DNA from: a virus | DNA length: 62,231 nt | Reading direction: 5' to 3' (one strand) | IMG/VR virus record: IMGVR_UViG_3300010348_000458 | Span: 1 to 62,231 of that record | Shown here: positions 5,274 to 8,117 of the stretch, in pieces | How the letters are laid out: the number at the start of each line of letters is the position of its first letter | Position numbering within the stretch: position 1 is the first letter of the stretch | Notes under the pieces: generated by a model | The model's input: only the letters and a program-made list of their open reading frames with translations | Databases searched by the model: none | What the model was told of the DNA's origin: nothing | Position numbers and translations under genes: made by a program

Positions 5274-8117
5274 TTATATCAGCCTCGGCTGCATCTGCGC
5301 TTCTGCAATGCGCCGTTCTGCAATTTCCAGATATTCGGCATTCAGTTCTATCCCGATGAAGTCCCGCCCCTCTAATACCGCCGCAATTCCAGTCGTGCCA
5401 CTCCCCATGAACGGGTCAAGCACCACGCCCCCTGTCGGTGTCTTTGTCAGCCGTGCCAGATAGCGCATCAGGGCAAGCGGCTTGACAGTCGGATGTGAGT
5501 TTGTGTGAGGCTTTATGTTTATAGGTTTGCCATGTCCTGACAACGCGCCACCAAAGTTCATGCCGACCCTGCCAGTATCCATCCCCTCCAGCCCCGCGTT
5601 GCGCTCGCTTCGGCTGGCTTTAGGAGTGTATAGAAATCTCTTTGGTGCGGTCTTTTCTGTTTCTTGGATGTAGCTTGTGATGACATGACTCGCACATCCA
5701 AACAATTTCGAAAGGCTTGTCGTAGTCGGGGTGGTGTCTATGCTTTCCATCAGCCCCGCATAATGCGCAAGGTTCTGGATCAGGATACATTCGTTGGAGT
5801 TTCCAATAAAGTCCTGAATAACTTGTGATGCCACTCTTTTGGAATCCCAAGTCTTTATTTCTGCAACTTCTCGAACAATAGACGTTGCGCATGAGTCGCA
5901 CAGGTTTCCCACAGACTTTGCAAAGTGGACGGCTTTTTCTATTAGCCAGTCCGGAACATTCTCTTGAGCAATATTTTGGATCGTTGCTTGGGTAGTCGTC
6001 AAATTCTTTTCCACATTGTTGGCAGATATATTTTTGCATCGTATAACCTCCGAGTTATCTATATCACTCATTATACTATGCTTTGGCGTAAGGCACAAGG
6101 AACATAGGTCGTCTTGTTTGCACGCCATAAAAAATCGCGCGGCTGAGCCGCCATTGTCATCATGTCCTCTAATGGTATTTGTGCCATCTTTGATATTTCC
6201 ACCTAAATCAGCAAGTCCACCGTGTCGTCCACTATGTTCCAGTCCACGATAAGACGCTTTACTTTTACCCGTCATCGGAAACAGCCCCGTCACCTCATCG
6301 CTGCCATCGTGGATAACATTCGCCGGAAATCTCCCCTTTGTTGGCTCATAGTTTATTGGCGGTCTGTTGTCGCCGTGATAGATACCTTTCGTTGGAACAC
6401 GGATACCATCGTTTGAATTGAAATCGGCGTGTCTATTCTTTTGCGTGCTTTCCTGATAATCAGCCTCGTTCTGAAACCCCACCCTGCACCCGTCAATCCA
6501 CAGCCCAGCCACGCCCCAAGTGAGCGCGTTATTGACAAACGTCCCGTCAATCGGCTTCATCGCCACGCAGATCAACTCCATCGCGGGCTTGAGCGCCGTG
6601 CCCCAGCCGTGCCAGAGTTGCGCGGCGGGAGTGGCGGGGGCTGTGATGTTACGCTCAACGATCACACTTTTTCTGCCAGCGTGCATATTGCCAGACTGCA
6701 TACCAACATCAACCGTTTCTTTGCCAATCACTTCACCAGTTGCCCCAGCCTGCTTGTCAATCCCCTTGCTGATGTCGTAACTTTTCGGGAAGCCGCTATT
6801 TCCAGTAATGAATATCTGACCGTTTCGGCGCGCCACAAACGCACCTGTAGGTACACTTACGCACCAAACATGCCCCTTGTATTCAATTGGCTCTACGGTT
6901 GCCAAAGTGGTTCGGGTTGCCCCGTCGCTTCGTATTTCTTGTGCTGTTGGTTGCTCGCAAATAACATTAAATTGCTCGGGTCGTTGTTGGCTGGATTGTG
7001 GTCGATGTGATGAACGACTTCCGTCCTCTTTAAGCATCTTCCTAGTATTCGCGCAACTATTAAACGGTGTTCCATTACATAACCGTCTTTTCTTGACATT
7101 TCTATATATTCTTCCGGGCAACGAACATATTTTACTCCAACATAATTCCCATGTGTTTTGAAGTAAGTTACGCCGCCCTTCCATGCAGGATTGTTCTGCC
7201 CTGTCATTTTTTCTTTGGCTGACTTCTCGGATTCTTCCGTCCAATTTTGTCTGCCTTTGTGCGCATGCTGCTTCCATTCCTGCCCTCTTAATACTCCGTT
7301 GCATTGACGACTGCAAGTAGGCGTTTCCACCCTTTTTATCCATGCTTTGGGTTTCCATACCTGTTTCCCACACACTGCACACGTTACAAGCGTTTTGCCT
7401 TCGCACTGCTCCGGCGGGACTTTGCCAGTATTCGCTATGCTTACATTCTTGTTGGCGCACTCTTTCGAGCAAGTCTTGTTTCTTAACGCTTGTTCCTTCG
7501 TATATGTTGGGAATGGTTTCTGGCAAGTTGTGCAAACTTTCCAGAATGGGTACACTCTCTTGCTGTTCCAGTGTTTCGGCGTAGGCAAATACTTTTCTTC
7601 CGCCTCGTTCAACAATACAACGATGGTTTCGGGAGACGATTTGGTCTGTATAATCCGATTGTATTCTGTAAGCGGTATGTTTGTTTTCATAGATAAAGCT
7701 CCTTTCGGGTTTACAAAACTCGAATGATTCTTTATCTATATTATAACATAATACGGGATATAATTCAATGTCTTTATGGTAATGTTCCCACCCATTAATA
7801 GTAAGAATTTCTGTATCTTCTGACAAGCAACCGTATACCCAAGCAATAGTGTCGCGGACTTCCCAGCCAGCGTCCTCAATCGCGCAGACAAGGCGGTGGA
7901 ATGTGCGAGTGCCACCCATTGCCAGCAGCGTCGCACCTGGTTTCGCGACACGCAAGGCTTCACGCCAGAACGCAACACCAGGAACGCCGCGATCCCAATC
8001 CTTACCCATGAAAGTCAAGCCGTAAGGCGGGTCGGTAATGATAGTGTCGACGCTATTCTCTGGCAGTTCAGCCATAACGGATAGACAATCCCCTAAATAT
8101 AACTTTACATCCGTCAT
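5274..8117 (-). CDS. DNA methyltransferase interrupted by an intein and a second in-frame insertion
   Basis: Continuous 947-aa ORF. Exteins carry [30 protein letters not shown] and [10 protein letters not shown]. Interrupted at aa 97-440 (Hint) and at about nt 5631-6128. Confidence 0.8.
5620..6039 (-). CDS. HNH endonuclease (free-standing, nested in the methylase gene in another frame)
   Basis: 139 aa. GGAGG RBS and a TATAAT box just upstream. CxxC pairs and HNH core [27 protein letters not shown]. Confidence 0.8.
6798..7829 (-). other. Intein (Hint domain) within the methyltransferase
   Basis: Cys1 block [10 protein letters not shown] directly after WVYG. Block [11 protein letters not shown]-terminal [25 protein letters not shown] followed by +1 Ser, where SGFPKS resumes. 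Confidence 0.75.
6893..7690 (-). CDS. HNH endonuclease inside the intein, in an alternative frame
   Basis: 265 aa. Several Cys-rich zinc-finger-like repeats, then EHRLIV...[24 protein letters not shown]. The true start may be internal, because the first ~50 codons overlap Hint block B. Confidence 0.7.

Follow-up and report, generated by a model that had tools for sequence, protein, structure and literature searches.

The stretch of DNA considered here, which we call the window, comprises all 62,231 nt of IMG/VR virus record IMGVR_UViG_3300010348_000458 (positions 1 to 62,231). It is a tailed-phage genome encoding a portal protein, a large terminase and a tape-measure protein (PHROG matches). 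We identified in it an N6/N4 DNA methylase gene (5274..8117) that is interrupted by an intein (6798..7829). Within the intein, in a different reading frame on the same strand, lies an open reading frame (ORF) for an HNH homing endonuclease (6893..7690). All features described are on the minus strand unless stated otherwise. Related loci (labelled L, with proteins labelled P) came from viral contigs, NCBI phage and bacterial records, and a scan of bacterial and archaeal genomes.

The methylase precursor is one ORF of 947 aa in the ORF list, and its two ends match the Pfam N6_N4 DNA methylase model (PF01555, E=7.8e-30). The gene has a single stop codon in the host frame (frame 0), which is the terminal one (5274-5276), and 34 and 55 stops in the other two frames. 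In these latter frames the only long stop-free stretches are two nested HNH ORFs. The host gene is not fractured, being one 947-aa ORF rather than two ORFs that each carry an intein half. The N-extein (aa 1-96, 7830..8117) ends in ...DTIAWVYG, and a W.YG/C junction also occurs in ~59 related loci. The C-extein (5277..6797), as read from the sequence, starts with SGFPKS and holds a second insertion (see below). The methylase left after splicing is predicted to be 603 aa long.

The intein occupies 344 aa of the host frame (host aa 97-440), from Cys1, directly after WVYG, to a terminal TGN that is followed by Ser+1 (junction IFITGN/SGFPKS). These coordinates and junctions are exactly those given in the preliminary description of the window. 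An alignment of 49 family sequences shows no variation at Cys1, H69, C323, T342 and N344, and Ser+1 is nearly invariant. The block B motif is TDQIVSRNH, in which His69 is invariant and Ser66 nearly so. The N-terminal Hint lobe (intein residues 1-105, 7515..7829) is predicted by AlphaFold to be all-beta (predicted local distance difference test score, pLDDT, 83-97). The C-terminal lobe, with blocks F and G (residues 305-344, 6798..6917), is likewise all-beta in the model, with a pLDDT of 93-95. Residues 1-104 and the final 42 residues of the intein were joined for 22 family members, and the resulting Hint profile matches the AceL NrdHF intein of known structure (6zgq) with E=2.9e-10 over positions 6-145 of 146, with two other inteins next. 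The N-terminal lobe takes part in this match, and Cys323 in the C-terminal lobe aligns with catalytic C124 of 6zgq. When the AlphaFold model of the intein was searched with Foldseek, all significant matches were inteins or Hint domains (6zgq at E=1e-5). Alignment with intein-free homologs, a check proposed in the preliminary description, located uninterrupted alleles (...YGSGFPKS or YASGFPKS) in the methylases of L065-L082 and of Mycobacterium phage Mantra. Judged from its sequence, the intein is real, with a complete Hint domain, and protein splicing is predicted.

The HNH ORF encodes 265 aa, ends in TAG, and lies in frame +1 relative to the host. Its product combines zinc-ribbon repeats with an HNH_3 catalytic domain (Pfam PF13392, 37.3 bits against a cut-off of 24.8, E=2.2e-9). 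Nine PHROG HNH families are matched (best 4e-17), residues H227, H228, N247 and H250 are invariant in 42 sequences, and 848 homologs were found in the protein database. A sequence search of the PDB with this protein gave nothing at E<=1. The AlphaFold model of the product has a mean pLDDT of 88. The ORF had been recognised earlier, with the correct length, coordinates and out-of-frame position, but had been placed between the Hint halves and described as ending exactly where the C-terminal half begins. Instead, it starts at intein residue 47, inside the N-terminal Hint lobe, with which it overlaps by ~58 codons, and its TAG lies ~7 codons inside the C-terminal lobe.

Between the lobes, the host frame encodes a linker (intein residues ~106-304, 6918..7514) that is stop-free but otherwise unconstrained, and rich in R, S, Q, E and K. 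As the preliminary description had it, these ~200 aa hold no domain: Pfam gives no match in the linker, and the AlphaFold pLDDT is below 50 at intein residues 107-114, 134-138 and 141-301. The endonuclease is not an in-frame domain of this intein, since the HNH is in frame +1 and the host-frame linker is without a domain. The linker is the frame-shifted read-through of the HNH gene.

That a frame this long should stay open by chance had been thought unlikely, and the counts bear this out. When the HNH ORF was resampled synonymously using the codon usage of the window, 18.3 host-frame stops were expected and none is observed (no open frame in 20000 resamples). With the synonymous codons of the ORF itself permuted, 12.5 stops would be expected (no open frame in 300 permutations). 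The longest open run in the same relative frame among the 61 other genes of the window is 121 codons. Host-frame stops are created wherever T is the last base of an HNH codon and the next codon begins with AA, AG or GA. T occupies the third position in none of the 85 at-risk pairs in the window, compared with 25% of the other 179 pairs. Across the family the figures are 0 of 5057 and 24.2%. The free-standing homolog at L052 serves as a natural control: T is present in 34 of its 87 at-risk pairs, and both other frames are full of stops.

The same layout recurs in other genomes. With the HNH protein as query, viral contigs yielded 80 loci (38-100% identity), of which 78 carry the HNH within a long ORF at the same frame offset. 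The layout is also found in a 484-kb uncultured phage, in an Azotobacter vinelandii prophage and in a DnaC-like gene. Among 73 non-redundant loci (38-100% identity) there are no host-frame stops, against a mean of 11 after synonymous permutation, and the third frame has a mean of 14.7. Thus, the openness of the host frame is neither chance nor an assembly artefact. This bears on a proposal of the preliminary description, that the element is an ordinary in-frame HNH intein in which two compensating indels, either sequencing errors or recent mutations, have shifted the HNH out of frame. In-frame HNH inteins are indeed known (cited in bioRxiv 10.1101/2025.01.02.630785), and in one contig (L092, protein P0057) an N-terminal Hint lobe runs on in frame into the C-terminal part of an HNH. 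However, all 73 non-redundant, independent loci, with identities as low as 38%, show the +1 offset with an open host frame, and L003 and L004, assembled from two other samples, carry an HNH that is identical at the protein level. Furthermore, under such a scheme the host frame would be meaningless, yet it contains no stops where 12-18 are expected. The comparisons refute this explanation, and we give it almost no credence.

Codon differences between the window and L005, whose inteins are of equal length and share 87% nucleotide identity, indicate which frame is under selection in each part of the element. Before the HNH ATG, in the N-terminal Hint lobe, the host frame has 7 synonymous and 4 non-synonymous differences and the HNH frame has 1 and 9. 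In the linker this is reversed, with 7 synonymous and 64 non-synonymous differences in the host frame and 46 and 22 in the HNH frame. In the C-terminal lobe the counts are 18 and 4 in the host frame and 0 and 22 in the HNH frame. The 176-nt overlap of N-terminal lobe and HNH has only 5 differences, counted as 1 synonymous and 3 non-synonymous in the host frame and 3 and 2 in the HNH frame. Along the element, selection therefore acts first on the host frame, next on both frames, then on the HNH frame alone, and finally on the host frame again.

The overlap (7515..7690, ~58 codons) is dual-coding by the evidence of substitutions and of structural models. Its substitution density of 0.028 per nt is the minimum of the intein (0.086-0.305 elsewhere). 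Both products are predicted there with pLDDT >90: the host frame encodes Hint strands and frame +1 the N-terminal helices of the HNH, so that helices at HNH residues 7-33 share nucleotides with Hint strands. L052, a free-standing copy, has conserved the part of the HNH N-terminus that shares nucleotides with Hint block B in nested copies.

We identified, directly in the sequence, a Shine-Dalgarno (SD) motif AAGGAG (7699..7704) separated by an 8-nt spacer from the HNH ATG. The start context is ACCCGAAAGGAGCTTTATCT-ATG, which lies in the host codons K-P-E-R-S-F-I-Y. AAGGAG is also present in L003, L005, L015, L016, L025 and L048. The codon for intein Tyr47 is TAT followed by G, which places an ATG in frame +1, in 37 of 58 non-redundant loci. 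The TAT share at Tyr47 is 80%, compared with 48% for Tyr codons elsewhere in the Hint lobes.

These start signals bear on the idea that the nuclease is made by programmed ribosomal frameshifting, either as a fusion of N-extein, N-terminal Hint lobe and HNH, or as a full in-frame intein after two shifts. The idea could account for the many relatives in which a clear SD before the HNH start is wanting, and the in-frame fusion P0057 is a variant of the kind it would produce. On the other hand, a double shift would be unprecedented, and no model of this type requires an open host frame. The window has a near-consensus SD at optimal spacing from an ATG, and the enrichment of TAT at Tyr47 preserves that ATG. 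In the window and in L052 alike, the first 50 residues of the HNH show conservation and a predicted fold, which argues for a discrete protein starting at that methionine. Frameshifting is thus very unlikely.

An intron is a further possibility, in which a group I or group II element carrying the HNH ORF is removed as RNA and the Hint motifs and open frame are incidental. HNH ORFs are common in phage group I introns, as is generally known and is discussed in PMC11855218. However, an Rfam cmscan of positions 4500-10000 at E<=1 found no intron and returned one unrelated, weak small-RNA match. The flanks of the HNH encode a Hint fold that is matched to solved structures, and most substitutions in these flanks are silent when read in the host frame. 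The probability of an intron is, in our view, close to nil.

Less easily set aside, but still improbable, is the suggestion that the intein no longer splices. The 344-aa insert would then be a tolerated loop, or the methylase would be dispensable or non-functional. Phage methylases are often non-essential, which counts in favour of this idea. So does the persistence in phage methylases of ShiLan-type insertions that have no splicing domain (PMC11855218), and the second insertion in the window is of this kind. Against it, the family shows no variation at the Hint catalytic residues, and purifying selection acts on the host frame of the Hint lobes. Mini-inteins that have lost the HNH keep these residues, and a dead methylase would not hold at least 265 codons stop-free in 73 lineages.

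We consider it highly probable that the element is a mobile intein in a phage N6/N4 methylase with an overprinted, separately translated HNH homing endonuclease. Overprinting, the other explanation offered in the preliminary description, is supported by the stop-free frames, the frame-specific purifying selection, the Hint fold with its joined-lobe profile match, the SD and ATG of the HNH itself, and the HNH-less mini-inteins. Ribosomes starting at the methylase ATG (8117) would read the host frame through the HNH gene and produce a precursor of N-terminal Hint lobe, ~200-aa linker and C-terminal Hint lobe. The linker would be meaningless and disordered because it is the HNH gene read out of frame. 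The lobes are predicted to dock and splice the intein out, restoring the 603-aa methylase. Other ribosomes may start at the internal AAGGAG-N8-ATG (7690) within the Hint-coding sequence and make a free 265-aa zinc-ribbon/HNH endonuclease. This enzyme presumably cuts intein-less methylase alleles of co-infecting phages, and repair would copy the intein together with the HNH gene (homing). Selection on methylase function would keep the host frame free of stops, hence the lack of T in third positions before codons starting with AA, AG or GA.

Several observations weigh against this interpretation. We infer splicing, internal initiation, nuclease specificity and cleavage of the element-free allele, and homing from sequence and from models. 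The HMM searches for Hint and HNH that had been suggested at the outset were only partly successful with standard models: Pfam detected HNH_3 in the nested ORF, but no Hint domain in the whole precursor. The Pfam Hint models match 4 of 22 mini-intein constructs, weakly, and a single-sequence search of solved structures gave a weak intein match only (E=0.18). A profile of the joined Hint lobes was therefore needed for Hint to be found. The penultimate intein residue is Gly, rather than the usual His, as it also is in 6zgq. An invariant Cys1 is a hallmark of class 1 inteins, and a block-F Cys with a G:5 Thr are hallmarks of class 3. Here Cys1 points to class 1 and Cys323 with Thr342 to class 3, and as all are invariant, the splicing class is ambiguous. 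Foldseek found nothing significant among solved HNH enzymes with the HNH model (best I-HmuI, E=0.48), a result that we attribute to the beads-on-a-string, multi-domain form of the model. Many family members have no recognisable SD before the conserved ATG, or use another start, an ATG ~45 nt upstream. Thus, the route of HNH expression may differ between hosts. Lastly, the mean identity of the intein (56%) exceeds that of the exteins (50% and 39%) by a modest contrast, although it is strong in some pairs.

Among the pairs with strong contrast, window and L005 share 92% identity in the Hint lobes, 64% in the N-extein and 42% in the C-extein. Window and L004 share 97% nucleotide identity in the intein and 55% identity in the C-extein at the protein level. 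Both junctions (W.YG/Cys1 and TGN/SGFPKS) are common to ~59 loci despite differing exteins. The intein has also switched exteins: at L091:3001-4722 (P0103) the intein with its nested +1 HNH (3410-4096) is in a DnaC/IstB-like AAA+ ATPase, just upstream of Walker A. This switch, and inteins that resemble one another more closely than their exteins do, give homing indirect support. HNH-less mini-inteins that keep the catalytic residues occupy the same methylase site (P0085, P0097), and a partly deleted form is present (P0016, L069). These are the degradation series expected from a homing cycle.

Other variants were identified as well. In a prophage of a cultured bacterium, Azotobacter vinelandii (CP092752.2, ~4.118-4.127 Mb; L093:3466-6048), an 860-aa ORF encodes methylase, intein and nested HNH, with a further ~150-aa insertion at the ARFF/CAKAS site. 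The NCBI annotation of this copy, made with the Prokaryotic Genome Annotation Pipeline (PGAP), includes only the HNH gene and the C-terminal part of the methylase. The free-standing homolog (L052:3995-4810; 271 aa, 47% identity) lies outside any gene, and may be either an escapee from an intein or an ancestor of the nested form. In the fusion P0057, on a single 1.3-kb contig, the N-terminal Hint lobe is joined to the C-terminal two thirds of the HNH and ends at the HNH stop. It may be an indel variant, an assembly error, or a step toward an in-frame HNH intein. In a crude neighbour-joining tree of HNH proteins, built from partial sequences and without support values, the intein-less, antisense and free-standing forms fall inside the intein-nested diversity. 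The scan of bacterial and archaeal genomes gave three loci only, all on contigs of metagenome-assembled genomes (MAGs), which is too little for reliable host inference. On a 2.9-kb contig binned as an uncultured Methanospirillum MAG (L094, CAYWVY010000140.1), the HNH shares 99% identity with the window HNH.

The C-extein contains a second nested HNH ORF (5620..6039; 139 aa, frame +2 relative to the host, PHROG HNH match at 7.6e-16) with an SD GGAGG at 6047-6051. In the host frame it corresponds to an insertion of ~168 aa (~5625-6128) between ARFF and PKAS, with partly duplicated flanks (RFFMACK and RFLYTPK). We found no Hint motifs or domain and no Rfam intron in this insertion. In the close relatives L003 and L005 the site is empty and reads ARFFYCAKAS. 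The openness of the host frame over this HNH alone is not unlikely by resampling (P ~0.1), and the case for a second nested HNH comes from conservation, as the host frame is open at the same site in 8 of 8 other viral loci. The second insertion is of ShiLan type and intein-less.

Intein-less forms of the first HNH also exist. At ~13 loci (L065-L067, L073-L082) a shorter homolog lies directly in the methylase, with the same frame offset and no intein. These copies are flanked in the host frame by CxC..[VL]PYxH and CxxCG[KG]P motifs. At L062:2868-5006 an antisense copy splits the methylase into two ORFs at a different site, where the same Cys motifs flank it. Thus, the motifs may belong to the element, possibly keeping its two ends together in the manner of a zinc-ribbon clasp.

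The interrupted gene is one of three N6/N4 methylase genes in tandem, 8 nt apart (5274-8117, 8126-8746 and 8755-9495). Repeats of ~200 nt at the junctions are common to the tandem genes (5231-5430, 8083-8282 and 8712-8911; also 8022-8116, 8651-8745 and 9400-9494). As a result of these repeats, the methylases share their starts and their ends (...AQ.QPRLI) and differ in their cores. The trio looks like a recombination-prone cassette array. Megablast of region 5000-9600 gave no match among phage records. Upstream of the array are tandem repeats at 10087-10266 and 11128-11400, with periods of 15 nt (GGAACAGGTGTTCTA) and 13 nt, and a looser ~30-nt repeat at 9728-10018. A transposase gene (59311-60561, plus strand; PHROG 506, E=4e-139) was identified near the terminase end of the window.

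The family suggests that one stretch of DNA can durably encode an intein and its homing endonuclease as two proteins translated separately in different frames, as it does in hundreds of environmental phages. The cost of overprinting is measurable as the ban on T in third positions before codons starting with AA, AG or GA (0 of 5057). The family also provides natural material on how inteins gain endonucleases, with overprinted, HNH-less, in-frame fusion, split-gene, free-standing and extein-switch forms. The arbitrary ~200-aa linker between the Hint lobes is relevant to intein engineering. Gene callers give the methylase or the HNH, never both, and PGAP splits the Azotobacter copy. Thus, such elements are systematically missed or mis-annotated. 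It is possible, though we lean against it, that the stop-free alternate frame is a heritable adaptation of the HNH lineage, a 'stealth cassette' that settles in genes without truncating them and moves between four states. These are inside an intein (the window and ~65 loci), directly in methylases (~13 loci), antisense and splitting the gene (L062), and free-standing (L052). Were this so, the family would hold living intermediates for an origin of the type 'splicing first, endonuclease invades later', and the ~58 shared codons would have gone on encoding two folded domains at once, with Hint beta-strands in one frame and HNH helices in the other.

In a full-text literature search, only four papers dealt with comparable out-of-frame endonucleases. 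Non-canonical inteins of actinobacteriophages, in which the homing endonuclease has a reading frame of its own, have been described (Gosselin, Arsenault & Gogarten, bioRxiv 10.1101/2025.01.02.630785). In these the endonuclease is EndoVII-like in frame 3 of the same strand, or an antisense LAGLIDADG or VSR enzyme, with HNH occurring in frame only. These inteins occur in DNA polymerase, minor capsid protein, terminase and thymidylate synthase. As in the window, the extein frame encodes the splicing domain but no fold in the central region, where the endonuclease is encoded in another frame. The interpretation is also shared, namely that a free-standing endonuclease gene invaded an intein and that horizontal transfer continues. 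In contrast, the endonuclease of the window is a same-strand, out-of-frame HNH_3 in a methylase, ~58 of its codons overlap Hint block B, and its family is large and metagenomic rather than from actinophages. A further preprint (10.64898/2026.09.14.751524) reports, according to its title, an out-of-frame endonuclease in a cyanobacterial dnaX intein.

The ShiLan domain of mycobacteriophage methylases is an out-of-frame HNH with an open host frame (Arsenault, Gosselin & Gogarten, 2025, Genes 16:178, PMC11855218). It has no splicing domain and is thought to stay in the protein. It also lacks a ribosome-binding site, and leaderless GTG initiation has been proposed. ShiLan and hidden-HNH insertions are treated also in PMC9957025 and PMC12613952. 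Like the element in the window, ShiLan domains have a patchy distribution, as a homing element should, and place a nested, out-of-frame zinc-finger HNH in an N6/N4 phage methylase whose host frame is without stops. The window HNH shares 27-30% identity with the Mantra and ShiLan HNHs over aa 98-261 (tblastn), and the tblastn matches in these and related phages all correspond to such elements. Unlike ShiLan, the element at 6798-7829 has a complete Hint domain around its HNH, occupies a different methylase site, and has a strong SD and an ATG. Mantra gp64 (L002:1883-4255) has a lone LAGLIDADG-like insertion near its N-terminus and a ShiLan-type HNH between duplicated EP[VI]VVARKP, both of which are described in PMC11855218.

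Fractured genes, in which split inteins have a free-standing endonuclease gene between their halves (Dassa et al., 2009, NAR 37:2560, PMC2677866), resemble the window in the position of the endonuclease gene and support the model 'splicing first, endonuclease invades later'. They consist of two ORFs with trans-splicing. In the window, by contrast, the host frame is open, the intein is contiguous and cis-splicing is predicted. In this family, the methylase of L062 is split, and its HNH is antisense. The closest solved relative of the splicing domain is AceL NrdHF-1-1 (6zgq), a split or mini intein deposited as class 3, with which the ...TGN C-terminus is shared. It differs in that its extein is a ribonucleotide reductase and not a methylase, and the window intein has in addition a nested endonuclease and an invariant Cys1. 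The element in the window unites an HNH related to ShiLan-type genes with an intein whose endonuclease is in another frame, and is thus not categorically new. The architecture class was published in 2025, and what is new here is an out-of-frame HNH inside a methylase intein, with real overlap of Hint block B.

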